Shown here: in pieces, positions 1 to 62,148 of the stretch
How the letters are laid out: each line of letters begins with the position of its first letter
Numbering within the stretch: the stretch's first letter is position 1
NCBI GenBank assembly: GCA_045047305.1
Contig: JASFYO010000036.1
Coordinates: 14,326-78,325 of the forward strand
Origin: Planctomycetota bacterium
Lineage (GTDB): Bacteria; Planctomycetota; UBA1135
Length of the DNA stretch: 64,000 bases
Direction of reading: 5' to 3'
Made by a program: the position numbers and the translations under genes
The notes under the pieces: generated by a model
Databases searched by the model: none
The model's input: only the letters and a program-made list of their open reading frames with translations
Told to the model about the DNA's origin: nothing

Positions 1-2186
1 ACGATCTCCTGCACTCCTCCCTGCAACCGAACTTCCTGCGAGGTCATGCCTGGCGCAAGCACCAACGCTGGGAAGTCGCCGCCTGGAAGGAACAAGTCTG
101 CGTCACCAAGTGAATTACAAAACCCACGCATTTGATTTTTGCGTTCTTCGTGACCTTGAATACGCGCATAAGGGATTGCCTCCCCCAACGTATTCTTCAC
201 TCGAACTTTGGCCAGAACGACCTTGCCACGCATGTCAATTTCCGCCAAACGCGCATCCGTGGCACCAGAGTTCCATACAGGCAAAACGAAATCGAAGGAT
301 GCAAACACCGTCGCTTGTTTTTCGTGGATCAAATCCAAACGCCCTGCGCTTACGACCAGGCCCTCCGCGTGAAAGGTACCGTCGTCATCAAGGCCTAGAA
401 TGCGAGGGTCGCTGGTCGATCCATCTGCGAGAAACCTCATCGCGAAAACATTGGCTGGAATAGCAGGGTCGAAGAGAACGCGCCCGACGAGCTGCCCGCC
501 CTTTTGCAGTACGATTTCGGTTTGGTAACTCCCTGCAAGAAGGGTCTCATGGTAGGGCAGGAAACCCTCTGCTGAAATTTCGAGTTCAAATTCAGGACCA
601 TGTGCATTGCCAAAGAGAACGAAGCTTCCGTCCTTCTTGGAAAAAGCGAAGTCGAAACTGTCGTACTGTTCATAATGACTGGAGGCAAAGAGCATCAACC
701 CCTGCTGAGGTTCTCCTGCCTCATTCACAACTCGCCCTGAAATTAGAAGTTGGCTCGAATCTAAGCGCAGGCGACCAAGGTCCTTCACCCCTGGCAGAAG
801 CGCACCAAGTGCAAGACTCCCCCTCATGGGCTTCCCATCAAAAGACGGCGCGGTTTGCAGGTCGAGGACGGTGGTGGCATCAAACCAAGAACTGTAACTA
901 GCTGCATCGATTTCGATGCGGACGACACCGTCTGCATCTGTGGGATAAAGGGCATCACCGGAGTGATGACTATTTCCTGTTTGATAACCAGCCAGTAGAT
1001 CTTGATTCCTGATGGGTTCTCTACTTTCATCCAAAACCTGCACTTGAACTACACGGTCAGGGTCAGCAGCTTCCATCTGCAAGAGAACTTCTTCATCCGC
1101 CACCCTGGGGCCCCAGCCAAAGCCAAAGCGCTGTTCACGGCCTCGCTCTGTCCGTACCGAAACCACCAAACGCATATCTAAACCGACAAATGGGTAGACA
1201 CTGCGGCCATCGCTCATGGTGTTTGCAAACACTCCTTTCTCTGCGTTATTCCATTTGCGGGCATCACGATGCCAACCAGTTCCAGGGTTTGCATCCCAAG
1301 CCATTTGTACCGAAAGCCCTGGCTGCTTAGCTTCCACATCATCGACCACGACCACTTGCCCCATGGCTGGCAATGTCAAAGTCATGGTCTCGTTTCCGCT
1401 TGGAATTCCAGCGAGCACAGGATGCTGCAGCAAAACCAACGGATGAACACGCAGCCGTGAAGCCGGACGTGTGGAAGCCCAGTGAGATAGGTGTGGAATA
1501 TGCGCGATACCTTCCTGGTTGGATAGAACACGAGAATCCAAAATGGGGAAAACTCTTTCTTCCAGAACCGAAGCCAAACACACTGGCATACCTACGATCG
1601 GTCGGTGGAAGGCATCCACGACTTTCACCTGAAGGCTCTGATCTTGCCACATCTTCAACACCCGCATTTGACTTGGAAACTGAAAAGAGTACCCAAAAAG
1701 TTCTCCCTTTCTAGCGACAAAGACCTGATTGTCCCCTATCTCTGGCACCTCGACGTGTCCGTGCACATCACTGAAATACTCTTCCGAATATTCCGCCGCA
1801 AGGACTTCTGGATCGGTTTCATTTTTGGAAACATCCCACATGCTTCGCTCTCGCCTTTCGAGATTTCTTTGGTATGTCCAGACCGAGGCATGGGCAATCG
1901 GTTCTCCAGTTTCACCAGAGATTAAGCGCACAAGAAGCTTCGGTTGGGATACTGCAACTTCCTCAGGAACTCCCGCAGCAGGAATCTCTGGACCACCAAG
2001 CTCCAAGCGCTCACGAGAAACTTCCTCCGTGTCAGCCTGATTGGGCAGTTCCAGCTCTGCTGCATGGAGTGGCATGGTGGGCTCGTTTAAGTCAGCTGAC
2101 TCCTCCTCGCTGAATGAGAGTGCACAAGTCCAATAAAAAAGCCCTCCGATGACGAAGATAAAAACAAGCAATAGGGAGTGTCGCAT
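1..2186 (-). CDS. Signal-anchored multi-beta-sandwich envelope protein, subfamily A; the 3' end runs off the left edge of the window
   Basis: This gene is absent from the ORF track because it has no stop inside the window. Hand translation of the minus strand from ATG 2186..2184 (MRHSLLLVFIFVIGGLFYWTCALSF...) stays open down to position 3, and I spot-checked several segments. It has one N-terminal helix, an acidic linker and then beta-rich modules. It is colinear with 13457..15973 and 45677..47362 (LISGRVVNEAGEP; VLQKGGQLVGRVLFDPAIPANVF; AEIDMRGKVVLAKV). Confidence 0.7.
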   Translation of the reverse strand, partial: MRHSLLLVFIFVIGGLFYWTCALSFSEEESADLNEPTMPLHAAELELPNQADTEEVSRERLELGGPEIPAAGVPEEVAVSQPKLLVRLISGETGEPIAHASVWTYQRNLERRERSMWDVSKNETDPEVLAAEYSEEYFSDVHGHVEVPEIGDNQVFVARKGELFGYSFQFPSQMRVLKMWQDQSLQVKVVDAFHRPIVGMPVCLASVLEERVFPILDSRVLSNQEGIAHIPHLSHWASTRPASRLRVHPLVLLQHPVLAGIPSGNETMTLTLPAMGQVVVVDDVEAKQPGLSVQMAWDANPGTGWHRDARKWNNAEKGVFANTMSDGRSVYPFVGLDMRLVVSVRTERGREQRFGFGWGPRVADEEVLLQMEAADPDRVVQVQVLDESREPIRNQDLLAGYQTGNSHHSGDALYPTDADGVVRIEIDAASYSSWFDATTVLDLQTAPSFDGKPMRGSLALGALLPGVKDLGRLRLDSSQLLISGRVVNEAGEPQQGLMLFASSHYEQYDSFDFAFSKKDGSFVLFGNAHGPEFELEISAEGFLPYHETLLAGSYQTEIVLQKGGQLVGRVLFDPAIPANVFAMRFLADGSTSDPRILGLDDDGTFHAEGLVVSAGRLDLIHEKQATVFASFDFVLPVWNSGATDARLAEIDMRGKVVLAKVRVKNTLGEAIPYARIQGHEERKNQMRGFCNSLGDADLFLPGGDFPALVLAPGMTSQEVRLQGGVQEI

Positions 2187-2249: not shown

Positions 2250-3299
2250 TTAGACGTCGAGAACGCCAAGAGTCACTCGAATCGTGCGGATGGAGCGCTT
2301 GCTCAAAATCTTCACTTTCACCGAGCTCCCTGGTGAAACCGCAGCGATCCGCGCTTTCACTTGATTGGCGGTTTGAATCTCACGACCATCGATTTCGAGG
2401 ATGACGTCGCCCTGACGAATACCAGCCTTATGCGCAGGTCCGTTTTTAACCACAGACCAGACCTCGACACCATAAGTATGCTCCAAACCTCTAAGTTTGG
2501 CACCTTGCGCGTCAAGGCCCTTCACACTGACACCAATCCAACCACGACGAATCGTTCCAGTCTCGGCAAGGTCATGGACGTAGCGTTTCGCAATCGCGGT
2601 TGGGATGGCATAACCAATGCCGCGCCACATAGGTTCCCCACCACCGCCCCCACCACCAATGGCGGTGTTGATTCCAATCACTTCGCCGTTCATGTTCACC
2701 AAGGGGCCGCCGGAGGAACCGCGATCAATAAAGGCATCGAACTGAAGGAAGTCCTCATAAGAGCCTTTCACCATCTTCAATTGTCGACCGAGAGCACTAA
2801 TCACCCCCAAACTCGTGGTGCCCTCCATGCCGAGCGGACTACCAATGGCCATGACGAGGTGGCCTGGACGAATCAAATCGCTATCGCCCCATGCGAGTTG
2901 GTGCTTGGCCGAACCCGGCGGAATATCGAGCACAGCCAAATCGGTTTGTTTATCGACGCCCAAAAGAACACCACGAACAATGCGGCCATCGTGAAACTGC
3001 ACCGTGGCGGAGGTGCTGCCATCCATCACGTGGGCATTGGTGACCACGATGCCTTTGATTGCGTCGACCACGAAGCCGGTGCCGAGGCCACGCCCCATCT
3101 CACCCCCAGAATTTCTGGCCACACTTAAATAGACCGTGCCGCTAGAAACCTTTGCAGCTAGATCTGCGCTCTGCTCCGAAAACTCCAACAAGGTCATAGC
3201 CTTGTCTGGCGTCTCGGATTGAGCGCTACGGCTCCAAAGCACGACAAAAGAGCTCACCAAAATGGCGGTCCACAAGATTTTCTTACTTTTTATGTTCAT
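2250..3299 (-). CDS. htrA: HtrA/DegP-family periplasmic serine protease (S1C) with one PDZ domain
   Basis: The product is 349 aa with a signal peptide (MNIKSKKILWTAILVSSFVVLWS). Catalytic triad contexts are present: VVTNAHVM, DLAVLDI and DRGSSGGPLVN. The C-terminal PDZ-like region includes GIRQGDVILEIDGREI. Confidence 0.9.
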   Translation of the reverse strand: MNIKSKKILWTAILVSSFVVLWSRSAQSETPDKAMTLLEFSEQSADLAAKVSSGTVYLSVARNSGGEMGRGLGTGFVVDAIKGIVVTNAHVMDGSTSATVQFHDGRIVRGVLLGVDKQTDLAVLDIPPGSAKHQLAWGDSDLIRPGHLVMAIGSPLGMEGTTSLGVISALGRQLKMVKGSYEDFLQFDAFIDRGSSGGPLVNMNGEVIGINTAIGGGGGGGEPMWRGIGYAIPTAIAKRYVHDLAETGTIRRGWIGVSVKGLDAQGAKLRGLEHTYGVEVWSVVKNGPAHKAGIRQGDVILEIDGREIQTANQVKARIAAVSPGSSVKVKILSKRSIRTIRVTLGVLDV

Positions 3300-3338: not shown

Positions 3339-6257
3339 ATGAAATCCTGGCCCTTAATCCTCGTTGTTCTCCTGCTCGGCGTATGCGCTTGGATTGTCCT
3401 TGCGCCAACGGAGCAGACCTCTATCGACACATCTTCTGGGTTCACCGAAGAGGTGAGCCCTGCTTCTACCTTAAGCGATGCTGTGGCCAGTTCCAGTAGG
3501 GATTTCAATGCTGCCGATGCTCTCGCTCGCACCGAAGTCACCTCTGGTCCAGCAGAAGCTTCACTCAATCCTTCTGCGGAGAACACACTCCCCTTCACGC
3601 GAGCCGCGGGCTCCTTGAAGCTGAAGCTCGTAGATGGCGATGGCAAAGGCATCCAAGACGCCAAAGTTCGCATCCACTTAGGTGGATCCGGCCCAGGCAT
3701 CGACGTCAAGGAATGGCAGAACCACAATCTTTTGGCAACTGGACTCGATGGCATCCTGCAAGTGGATGTGCCTTCCCATGTGGATCTGATGCTGAACATT
3801 GAAGGCTCCCAGTGGCATGAAGTGAGTCGACAAATCCAAGCAATTGCTGTTGGAGAAGAAGTGGATCTCGGTGAAATCGCCCTCGCTCCAGCCAACCATC
3901 TTTATGGCCAAGTGAAAGGCCCTGAAGGCCAAGCCATCGCCCATGCTTTCATCACCTTGCAAGAAGCAAATGGCTCCATGTGGGGCAACTTTGGGCAAAA
4001 GCAAACCAGGTCCGATGAGAGCGGTCATTACTCGCTCGATGGCGTGCGCCGTGGACGTTATGAATTCGAAGTGAAGGCACAAGGATTTGCGCCGATGAAG
4101 TTAGATGCTCAAGAGGTGGATCAAAGCAAAGGCGAGTTCGAATTGGATTTGGAACTCACCTATGGTGACAGCACGCGCGGCCAAGTCGTAGATGAAGAGG
4201 GCACCCCGATCCCCAATGCTCATGTTTATCTCGTCGCAGTTGATGCAAACAATTATTGGCGAGAGAATCACCCTGCCTTACCAAAAGAAGACTCACAAAT
4301 CCTCTCTGATGCAGATGGCCGCTTTTCCATTCAAGGATTAAGCGACGACACCTCCTTGCACATAGGGGCACGCGCTGAAGGTTATGGCGTTGGCTTTGCC
4401 GATGAGGTGAAAGCAAATGGCGATGCCTTGGTACGCTTGACACAACATTTTGCACTCCGCGGCACCGTGGTTGATAAGCAAGGGAATCCGGTGGAGCATG
4501 CCTCCATCAGCTTGGTGCCCTCGGACCCTGGAGAAGATGACAACCGCAACATTTCCACCCAATCCAAGGAAGACGGAAGCTTCGAATTGAAGCCGCAAGC
4601 GCCTGGTTCCTGGAATTTAAGCCTGACTTCCGCATTGGGCAATATCGAGCAGCAAACGGTGCAATTGGGGCCAGACACCGAAGCTCTTGCTCTCATACTT
4701 CCGCTGCAAAATCCGCTCAACATCCGAGTGGTGGATAGCGCAGGTAAAGCTCTTGCTGGTGTCAAAGTTTGGCTGAAGAAACCGGAAAACCAAAAAAACT
4801 TAGAGTCAGCGTTAACATCCCTTGGATATAGCGGTAGCGTGAGTTTCAGCTTCAAACTGAGTGGGCAGTTCGACAATCACTCGACCACTCAAACCGATGA
4901 AAACGGCGTTGCCCATTTCGCCGATCTCCCACCAGAAAAGTACAAGCTCCGATTAAATCTATTGGGCTATGCTCAATTGGAAAAAGACTTCGACGTCACC
5001 GGTGTCGCCCAGGAAGATGAGTTCACCTTAGAGAGCAGTGCTTTCTTACGTGTACGTTTGGTGAACAGCAATGGGGAATCGGTTAGCAATGTTCAAGTTG
5101 GATTACGCACCACAGAAACGGGTGACGATTTAGAGCAGAAAAGAACCGACGATGCCGGCCGGGCAGTTTGGAATAATCTGGAGGAAGGCGATTACCAAGT
5201 CTCCTATCGTGCCAACGATGCCGACGGCTGGTGGTGGGATCAAGATGAGGATGGAGACCGTAGTCCTGACCAAGCCGTGGTGTCGGTCAAAGCCGGCGAG
5301 ACCAAAGACTTTGAGCTCATCATCAACGACCTCGCCTTGCTCACGGTACGCGTGACTCGTCATGGCATTCCGGCCTCCGATGTCAAAGTGCAACTGCAAG
5401 AGGTTAAGAAAAACAATCGTCGTCGGTTTGGCAACAATGACGATCATGGACGCCCGACCGATGGACGCGGCAGCATCATTTTGCCGGCAGTCAAAGCAGG
5501 CAAATATGACATTGTGATTAAGGGGCGAAAATCCTCACCAGCCACTAAAGAGCGCGTGGAACTTTATGTTGGGCCACAAACCATAGAAGTGGAGTTAGAT
5601 GGCAGTGAGGTGCGTGGGTCCCTGATGGGAACGGCTGGACCTTTGGTGGGCGCCACAGTGGCCCTGGTGCCCTACGTCGACCCCAATGCCAGCGGCAAAA
5701 ACCGCCGTCGCAACAGTATCAGCATCATTTCCTACAGTATAACTGGGGAGAATCCGGTGATTAAGTTTGGCAAAAGTGGCGAGCAAGACACCAATACCCG
5801 GTCCAGCAGCCAAGGTAGCTACGTCTTCCTCGATGTTCCGGATGGGCAATGGACCATCATCGCCCGTGCTGATGGCTATGGCACCTGGACTTCGCAGCCG
5901 ATTGCGGTGCAGGGTGGACAAAGCGTAGACCTCGGCTCCTACCGCCTTTTCCCAGGAGGGATCATCACCGGCCACGACTACAATTGGACCCCTCCTTCCC
6001 AAGAAGAAGAGGAAGAGCGGTTCTGGGGCTGGGGAAGCTCGCTGCGTCTGGAGGATGGCAAAGGCGAGATGCTTTCCATGGCCAACCTAGATGAACGAGG
6101 CGATTTCTCCTTCCAGGACCTTCCGGAGGGGATTTATGTACTAATTGCCGACCAATTCACCTCCGAAAAAATCCATATCTCCGCCGGCGAAAGAGTTTCA
6201 CATGACATTCCGCTGGAGCAACCGAAAGAAGATGAAAAGCCAAAACAGGAACAATAG
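3339..6257 (+). CDS. Signal-anchored multi-beta-sandwich envelope protein, subfamily B (carboxypeptidase-regulatory-like repeats)
   Basis: The track ORF starts at TTG 3219, which would overlap htrA. ATG 3339 gives MKSWPLILVVLLLGVCAWIVLAP, a signal anchor. The body contains many repeats of the pattern G.V.D..G.P...A.V ... D..G.F....L..G.Y. It is colinear with 59260..62148 (AGRAVWNNLEEGDYQVSYRA versus TGRAVWPRLESGRYEVGYRE, and shared ARADGYGTWTS / ARGYERWTS). The C-terminal tail is charged (EQPKEDEKPKQEQ). Confidence 0.8.
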   Translation: MKSWPLILVVLLLGVCAWIVLAPTEQTSIDTSSGFTEEVSPASTLSDAVASSSRDFNAADALARTEVTSGPAEASLNPSAENTLPFTRAAGSLKLKLVDGDGKGIQDAKVRIHLGGSGPGIDVKEWQNHNLLATGLDGILQVDVPSHVDLMLNIEGSQWHEVSRQIQAIAVGEEVDLGEIALAPANHLYGQVKGPEGQAIAHAFITLQEANGSMWGNFGQKQTRSDESGHYSLDGVRRGRYEFEVKAQGFAPMKLDAQEVDQSKGEFELDLELTYGDSTRGQVVDEEGTPIPNAHVYLVAVDANNYWRENHPALPKEDSQILSDADGRFSIQGLSDDTSLHIGARAEGYGVGFADEVKANGDALVRLTQHFALRGTVVDKQGNPVEHASISLVPSDPGEDDNRNISTQSKEDGSFELKPQAPGSWNLSLTSALGNIEQQTVQLGPDTEALALILPLQNPLNIRVVDSAGKALAGVKVWLKKPENQKNLESALTSLGYSGSVSFSFKLSGQFDNHSTTQTDENGVAHFADLPPEKYKLRLNLLGYAQLEKDFDVTGVAQEDEFTLESSAFLRVRLVNSNGESVSNVQVGLRTTETGDDLEQKRTDDAGRAVWNNLEEGDYQVSYRANDADGWWWDQDEDGDRSPDQAVVSVKAGETKDFELIINDLALLTVRVTRHGIPASDVKVQLQEVKKNNRRRFGNNDDHGRPTDGRGSIILPAVKAGKYDIVIKGRKSSPATKERVELYVGPQTIEVELDGSEVRGSLMGTAGPLVGATVALVPYVDPNASGKNRRRNSISIISYSITGENPVIKFGKSGEQDTNTRSSSQGSYVFLDVPDGQWTIIARADGYGTWTSQPIAVQGGQSVDLGSYRLFPGGIITGHDYNWTPPSQEEEEERFWGWGSSLRLEDGKGEMLSMANLDERGDFSFQDLPEGIYVLIADQFTSEKIHISAGERVSHDIPLEQPKEDEKPKQEQ

Positions 6258-6287: not shown

Positions 6288-6316
6288 TCGCCAACTTGGG
6301 TGGGAAGACGTAAAAT
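6288..6316 (+). promoter_or_regulatory. Candidate sigma70-type promoter upstream of nqrA
   Basis: TCGCCA (6288..6293) is followed by a 17-nt spacer and TAAAAT (6311..6316), inside the 147-nt gap before nqrA. The -35 match is weak. This is pattern only. Confidence 0.2.
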
Positions 6317-6404
6317 CTGCGGCGTTTTCCGAGTCTTGATGTCCAATCGAGAGGGCAGGAAACATCCCTTTAGCTCCCGAACCCAAAGGCTGGAATTCGG
6401 TCTG

Positions 6405-7751
6405 ATGGCGGTCCACAAAATCAAACAGGGTCTGGATTTACCAATCCATGGTGCCCTCGAAAATCACTCACTGGTCGACGGACCCTCCGTCGACCGCGTC
6501 GCCTTGCTGCCCCAGGAATCCTGGGGGATCAAGGTTCAAATGTTGGCCCACGAGGGCGACAAGGTCCAAATCGGCAGTCCGCTCTTCCGCGATCGCCGCG
6601 ACCCGGATGTGGTGTTTACCTCTCCAGGCGCAGGCACTGTGGAAGCAGTCAATCGTGGTGCGAAACGCGCTGTGCTGTCGGTGGTGGTCAAGCTAGATGG
6701 TTCCGCAGATGCGGTTTCCTTCGATAAGCTAGATCCTGGCACCTGCGATCGCGCTGCATTAGTCACCGCATTGACGGCTTCCGGGCTATGGCCAAACTTA
6801 CGTCAACGTCCGTTTGACAAGGTGGCTGTATCCGCAGAAACCCCACGCAGCATCTTCGTCACCGCGATGGACACCCAACCGCTGGCGCCTTCTCCGAAGG
6901 AAATGCTCGCAGGCCGGGAAGAAGCGTTCAAGCTCGGACTGACTGCGCTGTGCAAACTCTCTGGCGGTGCCACTTACTTGTGCACCAAGGCCGGCGAGGA
7001 CTGGGCGGAGCTTTCCGTCGACGGCGTCAGCCAAGAGCAATTCGCCGGACCGCACCCTGCAGGCAACGCGGGCGTGCACATCAACGCGTTGGATCCGGTG
7101 AATATGGAGCGCAAGGTTTGGCATATTGATTATCAAGGCGTCGCCGAAATTGGTGAGTTCTTGCTGAGCGGTGTAGTTCCAACCGAGCGTCGTGTGGCCG
7201 TGGTTGGACCTGCTGCTGAAAAATGCGCGGTTTACAAAACCCGTCGCGGAGCTACCACTTCGGCATTCACTTCGGCGTGCTCGCCAAAGGGAGTGCGCTT
7301 CGTCGCAGGCTCCTTGCTGAGTGGCGCCACGGCAGATCCAGGATCGGACAAAGGTTACCTCGGGCGTTACACCCACCAGCTAAGCTTGGTCGACGATGCA
7401 CCAGAACGCGAGTTTCTCGGTTGGGTCAAGCCTGTCGGCACTCGTTGGTCACTCACCAACACTTACTTCGCAAAGTTTGTGAAGAAGAAGTTCCGCATTG
7501 ACACCGACATCAATGGTGGCGTACGGGCCATCGTTCCATTGGGTAACTACGAGAAGGTTATGCCGATGGACATTCTCCCGACTCACCTAATTAAATCACT
7601 CGCCGCCAATGATGTGGAAACGGCTGAAAAACTGGGCGCTCTGGAACTGGGCGAAGAAGATCTGGCACTTTGTCAGTACGTCTGCCCCTCCAAGATTGAC
7701 ATTACCGACATGTTACGTGCCATGCTGACCCGAATCGAGAAGGAGGGCTAA
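6405..7751 (+). CDS. nqrA: Na+-translocating NADH:quinone oxidoreductase subunit A
   Basis: The N-terminus MAVHKIKQGLDLPIHG is the canonical NqrA start, followed by FTSPGAGTVEAVNRGAKRAVLSVVV. It is the first gene of an nqrABCDEF series. The 35 extra residues from the GTG 6300 start are not NqrA-like. Confidence 0.92.
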   Translation: MAVHKIKQGLDLPIHGALENHSLVDGPSVDRVALLPQESWGIKVQMLAHEGDKVQIGSPLFRDRRDPDVVFTSPGAGTVEAVNRGAKRAVLSVVVKLDGSADAVSFDKLDPGTCDRAALVTALTASGLWPNLRQRPFDKVAVSAETPRSIFVTAMDTQPLAPSPKEMLAGREEAFKLGLTALCKLSGGATYLCTKAGEDWAELSVDGVSQEQFAGPHPAGNAGVHINALDPVNMERKVWHIDYQGVAEIGEFLLSGVVPTERRVAVVGPAAEKCAVYKTRRGATTSAFTSACSPKGVRFVAGSLLSGATADPGSDKGYLGRYTHQLSLVDDAPEREFLGWVKPVGTRWSLTNTYFAKFVKKKFRIDTDINGGVRAIVPLGNYEKVMPMDILPTHLIKSLAANDVETAEKLGALELGEEDLALCQYVCPSKIDITDMLRAMLTRIEKEG

Positions 7752-7760
7752 GGGCAGACC

Positions 7761-7919
7761 ATGGAAAAAGTCATTCCGCGCTCCAACGGCGTTTTTGCTC
7801 ACCCGCTGCGTCTACAGAACCAGCCCCTATCAAACAATAGGGGCAGAACCTGCTTCCTTGCTGGCAAGCAAAACCACTCGCCGGCCCCCGAAAGCACTTC
7901 CTCCACGGCCTGCTCATGA
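7761..7919 (+). CDS. Unannotated 52-codon ORF filling the nqrA-nqrB spacer (hypothetical; may not be translated)
   Basis: ATG 7761 lies 10 nt after the nqrA stop, with AAGGAGGG 13-14 nt upstream. The stop TGA 7917..7919 overlaps the nqrB ATG as ATGA. The product [52 protein letters not shown] is not hydrophobic. Rare codons (CTA x2, AGG, AGA) argue against translation. Confidence 0.2.
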
Positions 7920-9112
7920 AGTTCCTACGCAAAAAACTCGACGCTGTGGCGCCACTCTTTGAAAAGGGTGGCAAGTTTGAGAAGTGGTACCCGCTTTACG
8001 AAGCCGGTGACAGCTTTCTCTGGACTCCAGGGCTTCGCACCAAGTCCGGACCGCACGTCCGCGACATCATCGACCTGAAACGCATGATGAGCATGGTGGT
8101 GATCGCCCTCATGCCATGTATTTTGTGGGCGCTGTTTAACAACGGTTACCAAGCCATGCTGGCCGATTCCAGCTACGGTTTGGCCGCCGCCGACTCCATC
8201 TCCTTCGATGTGGTGATGAAAGCTTCGTGGATTGGCTTACTCGCCTTCCTCCCACTTTACATCGTGACACTGGCGGCAGGTGGTGCGGTGGAAACCTTGT
8301 TCGCAGTGGTGCGCAAACACGAAATCAACGAGGGCTTCCTCGTCACTTCGATGTTATTCCCGCTCATCGTGCCAGTCGACATCCCACTATGGCAAGTCGC
8401 AATCGGCATCATCTTCGGTACCTTGATTGGTAAAGAGGTGTTTGGTGGAACCGGCATGAACATCCTCAACCCGGCCCTCACCGGACGTTTGTTCTTGTTC
8501 ATCGCTTACCCGGCGCAAATCTCGGGTGAGGTATGGACCAAGTTGCCAAGTGATCCAAGCCTCGCGGTCGATGGTCACACTGGAGCTACGGCACTTTCTC
8601 AGTTTTACAGCCATGGTGCTGCTGCAACCGCCGACATGAATTGGATGGACTCCTTCCTCGGACTCATGCCGGGATCTTTTGCGGAGACATCCACCCTTGC
8701 CTGCTTGATTGGCGCTGCAATCCTGATTCTTAGTGGAGTTGGAAGTTGGCGCATCATGCTCGGCAGCTTGCTCGGCATGATTGGCATGAGTTATTTACTC
8801 AACGCCTTTGCCCCCGACGAAAGCCACTACATGGCTTTGGATTGGACCTGGCACCTAGTCGTCGGCGGTTTCGCCTTCGGCACCGTGTTTATGGCCACCG
8901 ACCCAGTTTCGGCGGCTCAAACCGACCGCGGTAAATGGATTTACGGAGTGCTGATTGGACTGCTCACAGTCCTGGTTCGCGTGTTAAATCCCGCGTACCC
9001 AGAAGGCATGATGCTTGCCATCATCTTCATGAACGTGTTCGCACCTACCATCGACTACTACGTGGTCAAAGCAAACATCAAGCGTCGGGAGAAGCGCCTT
9101 GGAGTTCAGTAA
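7916..9112 (+). CDS. nqrB: Na+-NQR subunit B
   Basis: The N-terminus is [30 protein letters not shown]. The protein is polytopic and carries the FMN-attachment motif [10 protein letters not shown]. Confidence 0.93.
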
Positions 9113-9863
9113 CAAATACATCATTGGCTTTGCCTTGGCATTGTGCTTGGTTTGCTCCTTGGCTGTGTCCACCACCGCAGTGGTGCTCAAGGACAAGCAA
9201 GACGCCAACGCCCTACTCGACATGCAGAGTCAGATCTTGCGCGTCGCCGGCCTAATCGATGCCGACGCCAAACCGACATCGGAAGAGGCCACGGCTATGT
9301 TCGCTAACATCAAAGCGCTAAAGGTCTCTCCCACTACCGGCGAGATTTTGGGCGAGATGGAGTTCAATCCAAAGAACATCATCAAAGCCTCGAAAGACGC
9401 AAGTCTCAGTACCGCGACCACCAGTGAGGCCGCTAGAAAAGCAAGAGTCAGTCGTATTCCAAATCACCTGATGGTGCTCCAGGTCACAGACCCTGGAAAT
9501 GAATGCTACGTATTCTTGCTCTGGGGCAATGGATTGTGGTCGACCCTATACGGCTACATTGCTTTGGAAGCAGATCTCAAGACCGTGAAGGGCCTTACCT
9601 TTTACGAACAAGGAGAGACTGCTGGTTTGGGTGGCGAAATCGTCAACCCGAACTGGACTGCACAATGGCCAGGTAAAAAGGTCTTCGATGCAGATGGCAA
9701 TTTGGCCTTAACTGTGACCAAGTTTGGCAAGGTCAAGAATCCAGAATCTCAGGTCGATGGCATTTCTGGAGCCACCATTACAAGTCGCGCTGTGGGGAAT
9801 ACCATGCAAACTTGGCTTGGTGATGAAGCTTATGGCAAGTTCCTCAAAGCGGAGGGCAAGTGA
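9099..9863 (+). CDS. nqrC: Na+-NQR subunit C
   Basis: A TTG start overlaps nqrB by 14 nt. The protein has a single N-terminal helix ([13 protein letters not shown]) and the covalent-FMN motif [12 protein letters not shown]. Confidence 0.9.
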
Positions 9864-10486
9864 TGAATAAGGAAACCAAAGACATCCTTCTGGGGCCTGT
9901 CCACCTGAAGAACCCGATTACCTTGCAAGTACTTGGTATTTGTTCGGCACTTGCGGTAACCACACAACTTCAGCCAGCATTCGTCATGAGCGCCGCCCTC
10001 ATGTTCGTGTTGGTCGGCTCCAACGTGACCATCTCGTTGTTGCGCAATAAAATCCCTGGCAGCATTCGAGTCATCACGCAACTGGCCATCATCGCTTCCT
10101 TGGTGATTCTGGCTGACCAGATCATGAAGGCCTACTTGTTCGATGTGAGTAAGCAGCTTTCGGTGTTCGTCGGTTTGATCATTACCAACTGCATTGTGAT
10201 GGGCCGCGCCGAAGCCTTTGCCATGGCTAATCCACCGGCGAAAGCCGCTTTAGATGGCATCGGTAACGCGCTTGGTTATTCGGTGATCCTCATCATCGTC
10301 GGCTTCTTCCGCGAACTACTTGGCTCCGGAAAACTGCTTGGACACGTGGTCATGCCAACTGTCAATAACGGCGGCTGGTACAGCCCGAACGGCCTCATGG
10401 TGCTGTCACCGGGCGCTTTCTTCATCATTGGCCTACTCATCTGGGCGCAACGCACCTACGCCAAAGAGCTGGTGGAGGAGAACTAA
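9863..10486 (+). CDS. nqrD: Na+-NQR subunit D
   Basis: Diagnostic stretches are [18 protein letters not shown] and [16 protein letters not shown]. The ATG at 9863 overlaps the nqrC stop (TGATG). The track start at GTG 9860 is one codon earlier. Confidence 0.92.
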
Positions 10487-11103
10487 TGGAACTCATCAAC
10501 TTGTTCCTCAAAGCCACGTTCATCGAGAACATGGCACTCGCTTTTTTCCTCGGCATGTGTTCCTTCTTGGCCGTGTCGAAAAAGGTAGACACGGCTGTCG
10601 GCCTTGGCGTTGCTGTGATTTTCGTGCTTGCGATCACCACGCCCCTCAACAACCTCATTTACGAGTACCTGTTGAAAGAAGGAGCGCTTAGCTGGCTTCT
10701 TGGGGCTGAAAAAGCTTCGACGGTGAATTTAGAGTTCTTAACCTTCATCGTGTTCATTGCCACGATTGCTGCCATTGTGCAGATTGTAGAAATGGCCATC
10801 GATAAGTTCTCGCCGGCTCTCTACGGATCGCTAGGCGTGTTCCTCCCCTTGATCGCTGTGAACTGTGCCATTCTTGGTGGTTCGCTATTCATGGTTCAAC
10901 GTGAGTACAACCTAGTTGAAAGTACAGTTTTTGGCATTGGAGCCGGAACTGGGTTTGCTCTTGCGATTGTGGCGCTTGCCGCGATTCGTGAAAAAATGAA
11001 ATACTCAAACGTCCCCCATGGCTTACGCGGCCTTGGCATCACCTTCATTACTGCTGGGCTCATGGCTATGGGTTTCATGATATTTGGAGGCATTCAGCTT
11101 TAG
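10486..11103 (+). CDS. nqrE: Na+-NQR subunit E
   Basis: [20 protein letters not shown] and AVNCAILGG mark it as an NqrD/RnfA-type paralog. Its start overlaps the nqrD stop by 1 nt (TAATG). Confidence 0.92.
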
Positions 11104-11119
11104 GCGCTGAGAAAGGATC

Positions 11120-12352
11120 ATGGATACCACAGTAATTTTCATGGGCGTCGGCGGCTTTACCGTCATTGTCATCGCCTTGGTTTTCATTCTGCTCGCTGCC
11201 AAATCAAAGCTGGTTTCTAGCGGAAACGTAAAGATGGTGGTCAACGGCAAAGAGGCCGACGCCTTCTCCGTCCCAGCTGGCGGTAACTTGCTCACCACCT
11301 TGGCTGAGCAAAAGATTTTCATCCCATCCGCATGTGGCGGTGGTGGCACTTGCGGCCAGTGCTTAGTGCAAATCGATGAGGGTGGCGGCGCATTACTTCC
11401 AACCGAAGAAACACACATCAACCGCGGCATGGCGAAAGACCACTGGCGCTTGTCATGTCAGGTCAAGGTCAAGGAAGACATGAAACTGCACGTCGACGAG
11501 TCCATCTTCTCGGTCAAAAAATGGGAGTGCGATGTGGTTTCGAACCACAACGTGGCCACTTTCATCAAGGAATTTGTAGTGCAGCTCCCTGAAGGTGAGC
11601 AAATCGACTACCAATCGGGCGGTTACATCCAGATTGAAATTCCTCCGCACAAAATCCCATACACCGATTACGACATCGAAGACGAGTACCGCGAGGACTG
11701 GGACAACTTCAAGATTTGGGAGAACACTTCCATTACCACCGACACCGTGGAGCGCGCTTATTCCATGGCTTCTTATCCTGCGGAAGGCAACCGCATCATG
11801 CTGAATGTTCGTATTGCAACGCCTCCCCCGCGTTCCGAAGGCATTCCAACTGGCAAAGGATCAAGCTACATCTTTGACCAGAAGCCTGGCGACAAGGTGA
11901 TCATATCCGGGCCATTTGGAGAGTTTTTCCTGAAGGACAATGATCGCGAAATGGTGTTCATCGGCGGTGGCGCAGGCATGGCGCCTATGCGTTCGCACCT
12001 GATGCACTTGTTCCGTACCTTGAAGACCGACAAGAAAGTGTCGTTCTGGTACGGCGCACGTTCTCTACGGGAAGCCTTCTACGTTCATGAGTTCGATGCC
12101 ATCGCCGAGGATTTCCCGAACTTCGAGTGGCACCTGGCGTTGAGCGATCCATTGCCGGAAGACAACTGGAAGGGCAAAACTGGATTCATTCACCAGGTAC
12201 TCATGGATAGTTACCTCAATGACCACGAAGCCCCTGAGGAATGTCAGTACTACATGTGCGGACCTCCAATGATGAACAAAGCCTGCCAGAACATGCTGAG
12301 TGAGCTTGGCGTAGAGCCTGAAGACGTCTTCCTCGACGACTTCGGCGGTTAA
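11120..12352 (+). CDS. nqrF: Na+-NQR subunit F (2Fe-2S, FAD, NADH-binding)
   Basis: It has an N-terminal helix, the 2Fe-2S motif [10 protein letters not shown], the flavin site RAYSMASYP and the NADH site [12 protein letters not shown]. Confidence 0.93.
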
Positions 12353-12391
12353 GTTTTCCTGGCCCCCACCAACATCCGGTAACATGTCCAA

Positions 12392-13447
12392 ATGGACGGT
12401 TGCCGGATGTTTCTTTTTGGGGTTGTACTTTTATTCCCAGCGCTCAGCTGTGGGCAAAAGCCGCATACTCTGACTCTTGTAGAAGCGCCTGCGGGCATAG
12501 TTTTCCAGCTCCAAGGCGACACTATGGGTGTGCGCTGGAATGTCACCACCATGGGTGCGGACGGGGAGCTAACGAGCATCACCGAGGACTTGCAAAATGC
12601 AGTTGGGCAGGTCGATGATCATATGTCCACCTATAAGCCGGATTCAGAAATCAGTCGTTTCGGTACAGCCTCTGCGCATCAAGATTTTGCAGTTTCCGCA
12701 GACACAGCTTTTGTGGTCCAAGAAGCATTACGCATTTCCGCTCTCACCGATGGAGCTTTCGATGCCACCGTCATGCCTCTCGTCGACCTGTGGGGATTTG
12801 GTCCAGCAAAGGCCAGCGACTCCGCCCCTAGTGCAGAGCAAATTGCAGATGCCCTCAGCCGGTGCGGATATCAAAAGGTCCAACTTCCAGCCGTCCATAC
12901 GCTGCGAAAATCCGTCGAAGGACTGCGCCTAGACCTCTCTGCGATTGCCAAGGGTTACGGCGTTGATGCCATGTGCGCGGCGCTCGATGCCGCCGGACAC
13001 CAAAATTACTTGGTCGAAGTTGGTGGAGAGCTTCGTGTCAAAGGAGTTTCTTCCGACGGCACCCCATGGCGCATAGGTATTGACACTCCGCGCGACATGA
13101 CCCTTCCCGGCACCCAACTGCAAGGCGCGATGGAAGTTGGCGACATCGCGATTGCCACTAGCGGCGATTACCGCAACTTCCGTGAAATCGACGGTAAGCG
13201 TGTGTCGCACACCATCGACCCACGCAGCGGATATCCGGTCGACCACGGTTTGGCTTCGGTCAGCATTCTCGCCCCTACCTGCCTCGAAGCCGACGCGCTG
13301 GCGACCGCATGCATGGTGCTCGGCCCCGAGGAAGCTTTAGCGTTGATTGAACGTCTGGATAACGTGGAGATTTTCTTGTTGGTACGCGATGGTGATGGAT
13401 TTCTTGAACAAAGCAGTAAGGGATTCCCAGAAATTGAAACGCTCTAA
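12392..13447 (+). CDS. apbE: FAD:protein FMN transferase (flavinylates NqrB and NqrC)
   Basis: There is a lipoprotein-like leader (LLFPALSCGQ). ApbE-type motifs MSTYKPDSEISRFG and IATSGDYRNF are present. It sits directly after nqrF. An alternative start is ATG 12407. Confidence 0.88.
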   Translation: MDGCRMFLFGVVLLFPALSCGQKPHTLTLVEAPAGIVFQLQGDTMGVRWNVTTMGADGELTSITEDLQNAVGQVDDHMSTYKPDSEISRFGTASAHQDFAVSADTAFVVQEALRISALTDGAFDATVMPLVDLWGFGPAKASDSAPSAEQIADALSRCGYQKVQLPAVHTLRKSVEGLRLDLSAIAKGYGVDAMCAALDAAGHQNYLVEVGGELRVKGVSSDGTPWRIGIDTPRDMTLPGTQLQGAMEVGDIAIATSGDYRNFREIDGKRVSHTIDPRSGYPVDHGLASVSILAPTCLEADALATACMVLGPEEALALIERLDNVEIFLLVRDGDGFLEQSSKGFPEIETL

Positions 13448-41775: not shown

Positions 41776-42699
41776 TCAAAAACACCGCGACATAAGTTCC
41801 GCTGCCCTGCGGGTGCACCTCCACCCCATCGGCTGCTCTTCCCCTTGACAAATCTTGAAGCGAAAATCGTGGTAGGACATGCGGTTGTCTTGACGTAAGG
41901 AGCCGATAAAAAAACCATCCGGATAGAACTCCAACTCCTTCCATGATTGATGCAGACTCATCCCATATCCGCCCCCCAGGGCACTAGCCTCGGTGCAAAG
42001 ATTACCTCTAGGCATGCGCTCCTCCACCCATGGCGGTAAGCGATCAAGGAAATCCTTCGAACGACTGCCCCTGGCCTTGATCGTAATCAGCGCCTCGGTG
42101 GTGGAGCGGAGCAAGCTGCCGTCAGGGTGAAATAAAAGTAAGTGGATATCCTCCTCCCCCGGCATTTTCACGAAACGCTCGACGAAGGTAAACGCGCCTT
42201 GGACCTCAAACGCTTCCTCCGTGGCCGAACCTGCAACAGCATTCAGCACATAGATGCGGTACCACCCCTCCGGAAGCTGATCAATCAACAGGCGCCCGTC
42301 CACCGACTCGCCTTGATACTGTTTTTGATCTCCAGCAGTCCAGGTTTCGAATGCACCGACAGCCAAACGCCACAGCTCAATCGTCCCGGAAACGGGTAGC
42401 TGCGTCGCAGCATCGAAAAAATGCAATTCAAGCGCGCTAGAGCCCAACTCTACCGGCTCGGGCTCGGCTTCCTCCCACTCCAGGAACTCCTCCTCAGGCA
42501 GTGCCTCAATCTCCTCCTTCACCGTTTCTTGCTGACGTTCGAGTTGCGGACGACGGGCATCGGCCACCGTAGGTGCTGACTCCAGTTCCGTTGGAGCCGG
42601 GCGCTCGGCAAAAGGGGGCATCGCGGTCGCCGGTTCGTCCTTCCACATCACCACGATGAGGGCAAGCAGGACGATGATGATGACCAGAAGACGGCGCAT
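41776..42699 (-). CDS. Signal-anchored hypothetical protein with one or two beta-sandwich-like modules
   Basis: The anchor is MRRLLVIIIVLLALIVVMW, followed by a Pro/Glu-rich linker and then DGRLLIDQLPEGWYRIYVLN-type modules. The last ~15 residues (WRCTRRAAELMSRCF) look non-native. See the frameshift finding. Confidence 0.65.
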   Translation of the reverse strand: MRRLLVIIIVLLALIVVMWKDEPATAMPPFAERPAPTELESAPTVADARRPQLERQQETVKEEIEALPEEEFLEWEEAEPEPVELGSSALELHFFDAATQLPVSGTIELWRLAVGAFETWTAGDQKQYQGESVDGRLLIDQLPEGWYRIYVLNAVAGSATEEAFEVQGAFTFVERFVKMPGEEDIHLLLFHPDGSLLRSTTEALITIKARGSRSKDFLDRLPPWVEERMPRGNLCTEASALGGGYGMSLHQSWKELEFYPDGFFIGSLRQDNRMSYHDFRFKICQGEEQPMGWRCTRRAAELMSRCF

Positions 42700-59250: not shown

Positions 59251-59259
59251 AGGTGCATG

Positions 59260-62148
59260 CTACTTCTTCGGAAGGTCATGATTCAGCTGCTCTCCTGCGG
59301 TAATCACCAAAGCCTTGGAAGTGTAATCTCCATGATTCACGGTGTAAGTGCCAGGCGCAAGGTCGTTGAAGCTATAACGGCCATCGGAGCCTGTCATGGC
59401 AATATCAACCATGCCACCGTCTTCATCTTGCAACATGATGAGCGCGTTGGGCCCAAACATACTGCGTCCGGTTAACTCTGGATCATAAGTCGCGTCCGCA
59501 CCAGAGATGCTCGCACCCTTTTGTAAGCGATGAGTACCGAGGTCGACGTCGTCCCCTTCCCCTACCTTGAACGGCTCGGAAGTCCAACGCTCATAACCAC
59601 GGGCGCGACATTTCACCACCCAGGTTCCAGCTGGGACATCGGTAAAACGGAAGTCGCCATCGGCGTCAGAAACCGCACTGGCATCATTGGGACTGCCGCT
59701 CGCCATCTGAACCGCTGGGCCTTCACCATTGTCGACCACCATGATGGCAATCCCCTGGGTGCGAGTAGCGCCTTCTTCTCCTCCACTATCGCGTTCTAAG
59801 CTAAGGCTAGCGCCTACCATCGGGCGGCTGTCTGCGAAAAGATTTCCTTTCACCATGGCACCGGGAATCTCGATTTCAAACTCTTGGCTTCCACCTGCAA
59901 GCTCCACTTCCTTTCTCACTTGCGGCGCTTGATTGCCGGCACGCACCACCAAAATGTACTTGCCAGGCTCTTTGGGCTCGAGCAGTGCACGGCCGGATGC
60001 ATTGGTGGTGCTTCCTTTCGGCGTGCTTAAATCCATTCCTTGTGGACCAAGGCCATTCGGCGGATTCTCTAACCAAGCTTGCACTCCACCAGCCGGGCTA
60101 CCGTTTCGGGTAACCAAAACAGAGGCCAACCCTAGGTCATGGATTTTCATGACCACCTCAACTCGCGCATCTCCGCGCACGTCGACCTGCTCCACGGGAT
60201 GCATCGTTCCCTCCTGCAGCGGCCCCCCCAACATGATGACCATGCCACCCATTTCAGCTTCGGCCTCGCGATAGCCAACTTCATAGCGCCCCGATTCCAA
60301 TCGCGGCCAAACTGCACGGCCAGTGGTATCGCTTATTTGGCTTAGAGTCTCACCTTCGCGGTCCAGGGGCTTTAGATAGACATCGACGCGTGGAAGTGCC
60401 ACCTTATCGGGAGTCATGACGAAGACCACTAGCTGCGAGGCTGCGGGAAGCATGACTTCCTCCACCTGCGCATCATCGACTCGATCAAAACGATGGGTGC
60501 GATCCGCGTGGCCCTTGGCATGGACCTCGATCTCGTAAGTGCCTACGGGAACTCCATAGATTACCGCGCGGCCGAAGGCATCGCTGGTGCCACGAAAACC
60601 GCGGCCAATGGAAGTCATGCGCGTTTCGGATTCGGTATCCCCATCCGAGGATGCATCATGCGCGAACTCGACTTCGAAATCCCCCCAGGAACCTTCGGAC
60701 CGAATGTCGTGCAGGGAAACATCGGCTCCAGCAACAGCATTTCCATCTGAGCCCAAAACTGAAACCACCAAATGGCGGGCTGGTTCTAAGGTGACCGCCA
60801 ACCCGCTCACGTTTTCCGTCAACGCGACAGGGAAATCCACCAACTGCCCTAATGGCGAAAAGACTTGCAAGGTGTAATCACCTGGTCGTAATCCCTGAAT
60901 GGAAAAGCTGCCATCTTGCGCTGTCACTTGTTCCGAACCACGACGCATCCCTCCCACATCGCCAAGCTGCGCTTCCAAACTGCGCGCTAGGCGGACTTCC
61001 GCACCGGCAACGGGCTTGCCATTTGGCCCGACCACCTTGCCTGCGAAAGTCAAACTGCGCGTCAGGTGGACCACCAGTTCCTCTCCTGCTGCGGGGAGTT
61101 TCTTGCGCTGGGTTGCGAACCCCTCGCCACGAATCACCACCGAGTCCAACTCGGATTCCAACCCAGCCAAAGTGAATCGACCTTGGCTATCCGTGTGTGC
61201 ACCGATGCGACTCTGCAAAGGAACAGACTCCGACATTTCCGTAAAGCCAATATCAAAGAGCATGCGATTGGGACCTACCACAGCGCCAACCACCGGCCGA
61301 TGATCTTCATCCAGTACCACGCCGCTAACGCTGCGGCCAGCACCCATGTGTAAGTCCAAAGCTTGCGTAACTCCGCGCCCGTTCACCACCACGGGATCGG
61401 CTTGCGCCGGCGCGAATCCATCAGAGAATGCGCGTAAGCGGTAGGTCCCAGCCGGAATACCACCAATTTCATAAGCCCCATTTTCATCCGTCGTGACCTC
61501 GTGATTCACCTGCGATCCCATCATGATCGAGGACCCGCTTTCACTCAGATGAATACGCGACAGGGCAAGCGGATTCCCTTCTGGGTCCAATACGCGCCCT
61601 GCAATCGTATCGGCGGTGGCCAAGGTCAAGGATCCCAAATCTAGCTCTTCGCCAGGCTGCAACGCTGCCAACTGGTAGGACTGTGGAGCCCAAAAATCCC
61701 CGCTACTCACTAATTCTAGGGCGACATCAGAAGGCACTTGCATACGCACCGAGCCACTGGAGTCACTGGCCCCTTCGCCCATAATTTCGGCCTTGCCAAA
61801 GCGTTGCGAAGTTTGTGCGCGTAAGTAACTTCCAGCAATAGCGCGCCCATTGGAATCGACCAACTTAGCTCGAACCCAAGAGGCTTCCTCAGTGCTAGCC
61901 GCAAGCCTGACTGCACCACCTTCGGGATTCATATTCGAACGTGTCATGCCAGCAGGAGCCTCCACCCGGTCGGCAGCTTGAATTCCCTCGGCCTCCGCGG
62001 ATTCGCCTGCAGTGGCGCCGCCGACCGCAGCTGAGACTTGAGTAACCTCCCCTAGCGGATTCACATCCGTCGGCGATTGATAGAAGAAAAACACAGCTCC
62101 ACCACAGAGGGCGAGCAAAACGAGAATGGCTGGGAGAATGCGTGGCAT
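59260..62148 (-). CDS. Signal-anchored multi-beta-sandwich envelope protein, subfamily B
   Basis: ATG 62148 gives MPRILPAILVLLALCGGAVFFFY, a signal anchor. The track start at 62214 adds 22 non-hydrophobic residues. The protein is colinear with 3339..6257 through to the C-terminus (DGDFRFTDVPAGTWVVKCRARGYERWTS versus QGSYVFLDVPDGQWTIIARADGYGTWTS). Confidence 0.8.
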   Translation of the reverse strand: MPRILPAILVLLALCGGAVFFFYQSPTDVNPLGEVTQVSAAVGGATAGESAEAEGIQAADRVEAPAGMTRSNMNPEGGAVRLAASTEEASWVRAKLVDSNGRAIAGSYLRAQTSQRFGKAEIMGEGASDSSGSVRMQVPSDVALELVSSGDFWAPQSYQLAALQPGEELDLGSLTLATADTIAGRVLDPEGNPLALSRIHLSESGSSIMMGSQVNHEVTTDENGAYEIGGIPAGTYRLRAFSDGFAPAQADPVVVNGRGVTQALDLHMGAGRSVSGVVLDEDHRPVVGAVVGPNRMLFDIGFTEMSESVPLQSRIGAHTDSQGRFTLAGLESELDSVVIRGEGFATQRKKLPAAGEELVVHLTRSLTFAGKVVGPNGKPVAGAEVRLARSLEAQLGDVGGMRRGSEQVTAQDGSFSIQGLRPGDYTLQVFSPLGQLVDFPVALTENVSGLAVTLEPARHLVVSVLGSDGNAVAGADVSLHDIRSEGSWGDFEVEFAHDASSDGDTESETRMTSIGRGFRGTSDAFGRAVIYGVPVGTYEIEVHAKGHADRTHRFDRVDDAQVEEVMLPAASQLVVFVMTPDKVALPRVDVYLKPLDREGETLSQISDTTGRAVWPRLESGRYEVGYREAEAEMGGMVIMLGGPLQEGTMHPVEQVDVRGDARVEVVMKIHDLGLASVLVTRNGSPAGGVQAWLENPPNGLGPQGMDLSTPKGSTTNASGRALLEPKEPGKYILVVRAGNQAPQVRKEVELAGGSQEFEIEIPGAMVKGNLFADSRPMVGASLSLERDSGGEEGATRTQGIAIMVVDNGEGPAVQMASGSPNDASAVSDADGDFRFTDVPAGTWVVKCRARGYERWTSEPFKVGEGDDVDLGTHRLQKGASISGADATYDPELTGRSMFGPNALIMLQDEDGGMVDIAMTGSDGRYSFNDLAPGTYTVNHGDYTSKALVITAGEQLNHDLPKK

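Follow-up and report, generated by a model that had tools for sequence, protein, structure and literature searches.

Two families of putatively membrane-anchored beta-sandwich arrays in a Planctomycetota contig, one with a fixed eight-domain body

Do long single-pass proteins built from strings of beta-sandwich modules, scattered over one stretch of a planctomycetal genome, belong to one family, and what might they do? The question is raised by 64,000 nucleotides of a Planctomycetota bacterium (assembly GCA_045047305.1, contig JASFYO010000036.1, positions 14,326 to 78,325 of the forward strand), and this whole stretch is referred to here as the window. A sequence-only reading had proposed seven coding sequences, A1 to A7 in the following, as one family that covers about 14.6 kb. 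All seven open reading frames (ORFs) are present and together span 14,630 nt, or 22.9% of the window. Our analysis supports five of them (A1, A2, A3, A6 and A7; 12,197 nt, 19.1% of the window), which fall into family A (A1, A3, A6) and family B (A2, A7). On balance, and with little room to spare, we favour the view that these five are bitopic cytoplasmic-membrane proteins in N-in/C-out orientation, with a non-catalytic periplasmic beta-sandwich array for tethered recognition or a scaffold.

Five related proteins in two families

Family A comprises A1 (1..2186, minus strand), A3 (13457..15973, plus strand) and A6 (45677..47362, minus strand). A3 holds the complete architecture in 838 amino acids (aa), and A6 is a short form of 561 aa with anchor, tether and modules 4-8 only. 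The window edge cuts A1 and leaves 728 of its 839 aa inside the window; the NCBI record P0014 (MFK5956245.1, QM477_07355, 'hypothetical protein') is 100% identical across these 728 aa. Family B consists of A2 (3339..6257, plus strand, 972 aa), in which nine CarboxypepD_reg modules follow a membrane helix and a tether, and A7 (59260..62148, minus strand, 962 aa), likewise with nine modules. A2 (MFK5956247.1), A6 (MFK5956284.1) and A7 (MFK5956298.1) are each annotated at NCBI as carboxypeptidase regulatory-like domain-containing protein.

Relationships among the seven proteins were examined using BLASTP with compositional adjustment. A2 and A7 are full-length paralogs, colinear over about 960 aa (residues 5-957 against 6-959) with 28.6% identity and an E-value of 8e-96, in agreement with the earlier statement that this pair can be aligned to the C-terminus. 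A1, A3 and A6 are significant paralogs as well (A1 against A3, E 4e-16; A1 against A6, 5e-11; A3 against A6, 2e-9), and the two proposed subfamilies are thus real. As the E-values persist under compositional adjustment, the similarity among the five proteins is not a compositional artefact. A4 and A5, by contrast, never reached significance (no E-value better than 0.4), and the proposed family of seven is therefore reduced to five. The motifs that had been quoted for the subfamilies (LISG.VV, LLDPEIP, IDLRGK and GRAVW..LE.G.Y.V.YR) were each found, and A1, A3 and A6 share a DLRG motif at a module junction.

The domain type was assessed with Pfam, as the sequence-only reading had suggested. The gathering threshold of PF13620 (CarboxypepD_reg) is 32.3 bits, and five proteins exceed it: A7 with 233.5, A2 with 213.1, A6 with 56.0, A1 with 38.6 and A3 with 36.2 bits. 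A2 and A7 each contain seven matched stretches, and both also match Pfam SpaA and SdrD_B. NOMO_3rd reaches 45 bits in A2, where it overlaps stronger PF13620 matches of the same fold class. A4 and A5 gave no Pfam match at E<=1. The shared plan of a helix, an acidic linker and tandem CarboxypepD_reg-type beta-sandwiches consequently holds for the five proteins. A module hidden Markov model (HMM) iterated from the window's own modules, which makes its E-values circular, counted nine modules each in A2 and A7, four to five in A1, four in A3 and two to three in A6, and it matched no other ORF of the window. An NCBIfam scan of all seven proteins returned no fitting model. Neither Pfam nor NCBIfam indicated a catalytic domain in these proteins, which agrees with the earlier remark that no catalytic motif was visible.

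A4 (39167..40675, minus strand) is an orphan single-pass membrane protein. Its true start is probably codon 18 (window position 40624), as in the record P0013 of the NCBI Prokaryotic Genome Annotation Pipeline (PGAP), where it is 100% identical to the hypothetical protein QM477_07525; counted from this start it has 485 aa, and the overlap with the upstream gene disappears. A5 (41776..42699, minus strand, 307 aa; MFK5956281.1, hypothetical protein QM477_07535) is an orphan, too. Neither has a Pfam, NCBIfam or PDB-sequence match, a relative other than itself in the protein collection, or any relative in two metagenome scans. A combined profile of A4 and A5 recovered A4 alone and overlooked A5, which the collection does contain. 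The comparison of A4 with the module profile by hhalign was not significant (P=0.015, probability 3%), and the family A HMM gave no match to A4. For A5, hhalign aligned residues 1-110 only to the anchor and tether of the family A profile (probability 69%), in a region that is compositionally simple, and the family A HMM aligned at positions 1-114 only (16.5 bits). Judged from these sequence comparisons, placing A4 in either family appears unsupported and membership of A5 in family A would be unproven; the G.Y.L-like stretches seen by eye in both carry no evidential weight. Upstream of A4 lies an ORF of 229 aa (40626-41315, minus strand) with a signal-like N-terminus and Gly/Asn-rich repeats of the GGxGG type. 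Only 1-2 nt separate its end from the PGAP start of A4, and the two are therefore probably co-transcribed. This glycine-rich ORF has no Pfam or NCBIfam match, and its exact sequence is absent from the protein collection.

The eight-domain body of family A

The AlphaFold model of A3, which was calculated with an 80-sequence alignment, reached a predicted local distance difference test score (pLDDT) of 88.7 and a predicted template modelling score (pTM) of 0.79. It shows a helix at residues 4-21, disorder at residues 22-68 (pLDDT <50) and an all-beta region at residues 78-838. Module borders were drawn from the secondary-structure string of this model. The membrane helix (aa 4-21; 13466..13519, plus strand) is followed by the disordered acidic tether (aa 22-77, low-confidence core 22-68; 13520-13687, plus strand) and by eight modules, all of which are modelled as seven-stranded beta-sandwiches: modules 1 to 4 at aa 78-156, 164-264, 268-359 and 366-464, module 5 at aa 468-559 (14858..15133, plus strand) and modules 6 to 8 at aa 565-641, 661-727 and 732-838. 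Module 5 is the principal CarboxypepD_reg module visible to Pfam, which detects only one or two of the domains in family A proteins, and it contains the invariant residues G473, G520 and F522. The high pTM points to a defined packing between the domains. A model of A6 with a six-sequence alignment (pLDDT 43) was not used, and for family B we draw solely on Pfam, BLAST and synteny.

To judge how widely this architecture occurs, we rely on an exhaustive HMMER search with a profile made from A3, two A3 orthologs, A1 and A6. It yielded 7095 matches at E<1e-3, and at E<1e-30 there were 387 cluster representatives. Most of the 150 best matches are 850-880 aa long and align to the near-complete profile in a single stretch, with pairwise identities within the family of only about 20-28%. 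The earlier description in terms of repeated modules of about 80-100 aa has accordingly to be corrected for subfamily A, in which hundreds of proteins keep one fixed architecture of eight domains from end to end. A word-indexed search for A3 had given three close orthologs, and the paralog profile had added only generic repeat proteins. The picture of family A as a lineage-restricted near-orphan was overturned by the hundreds of full-length relatives in the exhaustive search. The indexed search had overlooked paralogs that were present in its own query alignment, and a result of few homologs from such a search is unreliable for divergent repeat proteins. Every family A member with a source name is a protein from a metagenome-assembled genome (MAG) of Planctomycetota, and none of the named members carries a functional name.

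In an 80-sequence family A HMM, which includes A1, A3 and A6 themselves, the matched positions are 4-851 for A3, 1-742 for A1 (E 1e-160, cut by the window edge) and 376-856 for A6 (E 7e-113). As A6 is covered at 376-856 only, we regard it as a short form without the first three modules. The matches of A2 and A7 to this HMM are confined to single modules and do not follow its order. Hence there is no colinearity between families A and B, which share only the domain type and the plan of anchor and tether.

Conservation within family A is nearly even across the modules, with about 1.3-1.6 bits per column. The most conserved stretch, at 2.47 bits per column, is the junction between modules 6 and 7 (A3 aa 642-660; 15380..15436, plus strand) with the consensus DPRLxP(I/L)DLRG, in which D655 is found in 138 of 140 family A sequences and L656 and R657 in 128 of 140. 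Glycines, prolines, a single phenylalanine and the Asp-Leu-Arg-Gly motif make up the invariant residues, and the conserved G, P, D, L and R lie at turns and junctions; the pattern is structural and not of a catalytic type. A second junction motif, L-P-(P/A)-T-G between modules 2 and 3 (A3 aa 265-269, window positions 14249-14263), is conserved family-wide; of 140 sequences, 132 have the P, 127 the G and 73 the T. Despite its likeness to a sortase signal, it is probably structural. LPXTG matches in the window proteins are internal only (A3 residue 265, A1 residue 780), a C-terminal LPXTG sorting signal was not found, and the proteins were hence rejected as sortase substrates. Among the homologs outside the window, P0067 (1218 aa) is a long family A match that is not a sigma fusion and that shows another anchor helix near residue 345. 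The protein may consist of a partial and a complete family A unit, either as a merged tandem pair or as a frameshifted gene call.

A Foldseek search of the A3 model against the PDB returned only strings of domains, namely macroglobulin-like (MG) arrays of the alpha-2-macroglobulin (A2M) family, BaTIE (6fwv), Gram-positive pilins and SpyCEP. The best match was A2ML1 (7q62) with an E-value of 1e-9, alignments of about 970-1000 columns and a TM-score of about 0.09. With TM-scores near 0.1 and a root-mean-square deviation (rmsd) above 30 Å, no solved protein in the PDB shares the overall arrangement of A3. A profile search of PDB sequences gave matches at the module level only, among them a transglutaminase-family fragment, SlaB (8qox_B), an intradiol dioxygenase beta-sandwich and NOMO2 (9c7v_B). 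Bacterial A2Ms are periplasmic and attached to the inner membrane, and apart from the Foldseek result there are weak Pfam matches to MG2, MG4 and bMG3, below their cut-offs in A1 and A3. The proteins described here differ in that they have neither a CxEQ thioester motif nor a helical thioester domain, and a relative of alpha-2-macroglobulin was rejected on account of the missing CxEQ motif, the all-beta ectodomain and the different overall arrangement.

How new is this family? The domain type is well known, PGAP already labels A2, A6 and A7 by it, and single-pass strings of such domains are a familiar kind of protein. Five of the seven window proteins pass PF13620 and in this resemble the generic proteins of the PF13620 and PF13715 type, and similar multi-repeat proteins with helix and tether occur among the records (P0006, P0007, P0011). 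That label is given at the domain level and names no function, whereas family A is set apart by its eight fixed modules and the DPRLxPIDLRG junction. As a full-length family, with its eight-domain body, the DLRG junction, its restriction to Planctomycetota MAGs so far and its use with extracytoplasmic function (ECF) sigma factors described below, family A is not described in the sources searched, and no curated model covers it.

Probable membrane anchor, sigma factor fusions and proposed role

The N-terminal hydrophobic helix that had been noted in the sequence is a single segment in each of the seven proteins, and no other convincing membrane segment was detected. In A3 it falls just below the KD-19 (Kyte-Doolittle, 19 residues) cut-off and reaches 2.04 with a 17-residue window. 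The acidic linker was recovered as an acidic stretch rich in Pro, Ser and Ala after the helix. In the window proteins of families A and B only 2-4 residues precede the helix. Across family A, 126 of 140 members have the helix, and the remainder resemble truncated gene calls; the median uncharged span is 21 residues long, and the net charge changes from +1.5 ahead of the helix to -3.9 over the 30 aa after it. A lipobox ([LVI][ASTVI][GAS]C) occurs in none of the seven window proteins and in 1 of 126 family A members, and an identity as lipoproteins was rejected for this reason.

The strongest indication of topology comes from homologs in which the same helix follows a cytoplasmic domain. Eleven of the best 150 family A matches are about 200-240 aa longer at the N-terminus and consist of an ECF sigma domain, then the membrane helix, then the ectodomain; they make up about 8% of the family A relatives listed. 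The sigma extensions are mutually homologous (31-55% identity). Pfam detected Sigma70_r2 and r4 in all seven extensions that were tested, and TIGR02937 was passed by all eight tested (P0071, P0093, P0099, P0110, P0131, P0142, P0144 and P0161). As the family profile starts at the helix after the sigma domain, the homologous helix must cross the membrane in these proteins, with the beta-sandwich body outside. This lends indirect support to the proposal that the window proteins are anchored in the inner membrane and face the periplasm, and an uncleaved N-in/C-out anchor is, from the sequence features, the likeliest reading for the unfused window proteins.

The alternative most directly addressed by these data is that the proteins are secreted or surface-exposed, as adhesins or S-layer-type subunits, and that the helix is a cleaved Sec signal. 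Single modules resemble SlaB 8qox_B, pilins, BaTIE, the adhesin models for SdrD and Bap and, at 39 bits, the anammox S-layer model NF052345, and fast divergence together with variation in copy number is typical of surface proteins. The module fold is indeed common to Gram-positive pilins, BaTIE, the B-repeats of SdrD (CnaB or prealbumin-like) and the S-layer proteins Kustd1514 and SlaB. The similarity ends there: the proteins described here carry an N-terminal helix anchor in a diderm and no C-terminal sortase signal, and the family cut-offs are missed widely. For NF052345, A2 and A7 reach 39 and 35.9 bits against a curated cut-off of 1400, and both were rejected as S-layer glycoproteins of the Kustd1514 family. 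Proline at position +1 is unfavourable for signal peptidase I, and the helix of A2 terminates in A-P. The long uncharged span, usually with acidic residues directly after it, the lack of a lipobox or C-terminal sorting signal and the membrane-spanning homologous helix of the sigma fusions also argue against a cleaved signal. We therefore regard a secreted or surface location as unlikely. Of the earlier suggestion of a scaffold or adhesion system, surface adhesion is the less likely half because of the anchor.

Returning to the sigma fusions, their ectodomains are as divergent as the rest of family A (median identity 24%), and their sigma domains have a median identity of 38%. In a rough neighbour-joining tree of the ectodomains the fusions fall in about six places, which is weak evidence at such divergence. 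One contig (L007:620-23231) contains five paralogs within 23 kb, all of 1002-1076 aa, in which a CarboxypepD_reg ectodomain is preceded by an ECF sigma domain and a membrane helix; the family A profile matches four of them. Duplicated planctomycetal ECF genes have been reported to acquire unrelated C-terminal extensions via insertion into pre-existing genes (Pinto et al., PMC7671368), and this process could explain how the fusions arise. The order of domains in the fused relatives is that of known ECF sigma factors with C-terminal membrane-spanning extensions, such as the planctomycetal cases in PMC7671368 and ECF01-Gob in PMC5766207; the window proteins differ in that they have no sigma domain. 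In the main texts of the papers searched we found no account of the family A ectodomain as an ECF sigma extension.

Could the window proteins themselves take part in signalling, as anti-sigma factors or as sensors in an ECF pathway? The sigma-fused homologs speak for this, as does a gene for a DegP/DegS-type serine protease (2250..3299, minus strand; 349 aa, one PDZ domain) that adjoins A1 and A2. The cytoplasmic part of the window proteins, however, is limited to the 2-4 residues mentioned above and leaves no room for an anti-sigma domain. Pfam gave no sigma or anti-sigma match in any of the seven, and the other genes of the window were not seen to include one for an ECF sigma factor. An anti-sigma factor was rejected for lack of a cytoplasmic domain, and a direct signalling role of the window copies is, in our judgement, very unlikely.

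The tethered recognition or scaffold role that we favour would work as follows. Each protein would leave 2-4 residues in the cytoplasm and be anchored by one helix, from which a flexible acidic tether (45-70 aa) leads to an array of transthyretin-like (CarboxypepD_reg) seven-stranded modules, of which there are nine in family B and, in family A, a fixed eight (A1, A3) or the last five (A6). The anchor would hold the array at the membrane, the tether would supply reach, and the array would display fast-diverging surfaces that may bind a partner in the envelope or periplasm, be it a glycan, the wall or a protein, without any enzymatic step. In the sigma-fused relatives the ectodomain would lie outside as one half of a membrane-tethered ECF sigma factor, and its binding state or its proteolysis may gate the release of sigma; the window copies lack such a sigma output. 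We infer an uncleaved anchor, a periplasmic location and a binding or scaffold role from these features, and paralog expansion, fast divergence of surfaces and the reuse as the outer half of sigma factors would fit a recognition module best.

Several points weigh against this interpretation. The helix may be cleaved. The window copies lack a cytoplasmic domain, and the link to sigma factors cannot directly apply to them; given the insertion process cited above, the fusions may also say little about the function of the ectodomain. Furthermore, every named homolog is a MAG protein with a 'hypothetical' or domain-level name, and the gene neighbourhoods yielded no conserved functional neighbour from which a ligand or a partner could be named.

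The conserved length and the confident geometry between domains would also fit a fixed-length strut, for which NOMO provides a eukaryotic precedent (PMC8327139, PMC12262048). In this alternative the proteins are periplasmic spacers, length-defined rods on the cytoplasmic membrane that set the distance to the wall or outer membrane, as NOMO and POM152 do in eukaryotic lumenal spaces. NOMO1 is a rod of about 27 nm, and its lengthening widens the lumen of the endoplasmic reticulum (PMC8327139; PMC12262048). In family A a length of about 850-880 aa is conserved despite only 20-25% identity, and the pTM of 0.79 implies a defined inter-domain geometry. There are also module-level Pfam matches to NOMO and EMC7 beta-sandwich models, the match to NOMO2 (9c7v_B) in the PDB search, and BaTIE, a top structural neighbour here that has likewise been reported as the top one for NOMO1 (PMC8327139; PMC12262048). 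As in NOMO (of the BOS complex) and POM152 with their 8-12 Ig-like or transthyretin-like lumenal domains, a single anchor is combined with a string of beta-sandwiches. NOMO is a type I protein with a single membrane helix near the C-terminus (PMC8327139). The anchor is N-terminal in the proteins described here, there is no colinearity and the matches are at the fold level only. NOMO in the BOS complex is recognised by about twelve lumenal domains, a C-terminal membrane helix and the partners NCLN and TMEM147; with their anchor at the other end, the proteins described here were not assigned to it. Moreover, no domain known to bind the wall or outer membrane is seen at the far end, the length varies within the genome (five modules in A6, nine in family B), and the many divergent paralogs are unexpected for a simple ruler. 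We consider a purely spacing function improbable and prefer tethered recognition or scaffolding as the role of the array.

Genomic context and significance

The genes are scattered among core operons, as had been described from the sequence; the operons concerned include nqr-apbE, ruvC, plsY-gpsA and cco. A2 lies directly upstream of the nqr operon, and the start of A3 follows 10 nt past apbE; nqrA-F and apbE (6300..13447, plus strand) occupy the space between the two, and this arrangement is kept in relatives. A7 ends 10 nt upstream of ruvC. The protease gene upstream of A1 is divergent from A2, with only about 40 nt between the two starts (3299-3339). A scan for promoters and terminators around A3 gave counts at or below chance.

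The order A2, nqrA-F, apbE and one or more family A genes is kept in six related contigs. It is followed on the opposite strand by a conserved set of genes, namely a chalcone-isomerase-like gene, a ycxB-like gene and the fixS and P-type ATPase genes of cco assembly. This conserved order, together with the 10-nt gap between apbE and A3 with no terminator-like site between them, raises the possibility that A2 and A3 assist the Na+-NQR complex as accessory factors. Yet synteny in close relatives extends over the entire region, cco genes included, and the adjacency may be no more than an inherited order of genes. At this site, family A is represented by one to three copies that are about 27% identical between genera, compared with 74-95% for the Nqr proteins, and other family members occur in unrelated contexts. 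We hold a role as NQR accessory factors to be extremely unlikely.

The site itself is variable. One family A gene follows apbE in the window and in the contigs L003, L005 and L009, two follow it in L001 and three in L008. Variation in family A copy number was observed at L001:12615-15155, L008:2872-10529 and L006:6752-9951. Compared with the window, the flanking proteins of L001, L003 and L005 are 74-95% identical, A3 62-80% and A2 59-64%. In L008 and L009 the flanking proteins are 55-88% identical, the family A gene at the site only about 27% and A2 58% (L009). Orthologs of A2 are found upstream of nqr at 58-64% identity in L001, L003, L005 and L009. The tandem family A paralogs are 21-28% identical to each other. 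The pattern is consistent with fast divergence, with birth-and-death evolution of a tandem array, or with the two combined. The MAG 'Planctomycetota bacterium NORP40' carries an A3 ortholog that is 80% identical, and further family A members are clustered elsewhere in it, upstream of P0033.

Other genes of the window encode cbb3 oxidase and its assembly proteins, PtsI, ProS, a TonB-dependent receptor with TonB, PlsY, GpsA, an M3 peptidase, PurB and NadC. The receptor (688 aa) and TonB (233 aa) are encoded between A5 and A6 (42809-45615, plus strand). An ORF of 750 aa (23921-26173, minus strand) fuses COX1 (CcoN) and FixO (CcoO), subunits of the cbb3 oxidase; this fused ccoN-ccoO gene adjoins fixP, fixG, fixH, a DsbD_2-family gene and a P-type ATPase gene. 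A hypothetical protein of 630 aa (QM477_07485; 31186-33078, minus strand) has no Pfam or NCBIfam match, and a gene for 619 aa stands at the syntenic position in L003. A protein of 247 aa (33794-34537, minus strand) shows a weak Myb-like DNA-binding match below the Pfam cut-off, and a similar gene is found in the same place in L003.

The envelope of Planctomycetota is unusual, with a large and irregular periplasm, and very few of its proteins have been characterised. Families A and B would add to these a set of proteins that are abundant (about 19% of the window, and tandem arrays in relatives), predicted to be anchored in the inner membrane, and fast-evolving. The contrast between the few homologs given by the word-indexed search and the hundreds found by the exhaustive one is a practical warning for similar cases. 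With a profile, a confident structural model and a natural link to ECF sigma signalling, family A is now testable. A more far-reaching and rather unlikely idea is that the family A ectodomain is an undescribed extracytoplasmic module of Planctomycetota with two uses: when fused, it might be the sensing or proteolysis-gated half of an expanded one-polypeptide ECF system, and when unfused, as in the window, a prokaryotic counterpart of NOMO or POM152 in the form of a rigid strut of fixed length that ties or spaces membrane and wall in a large periplasm.

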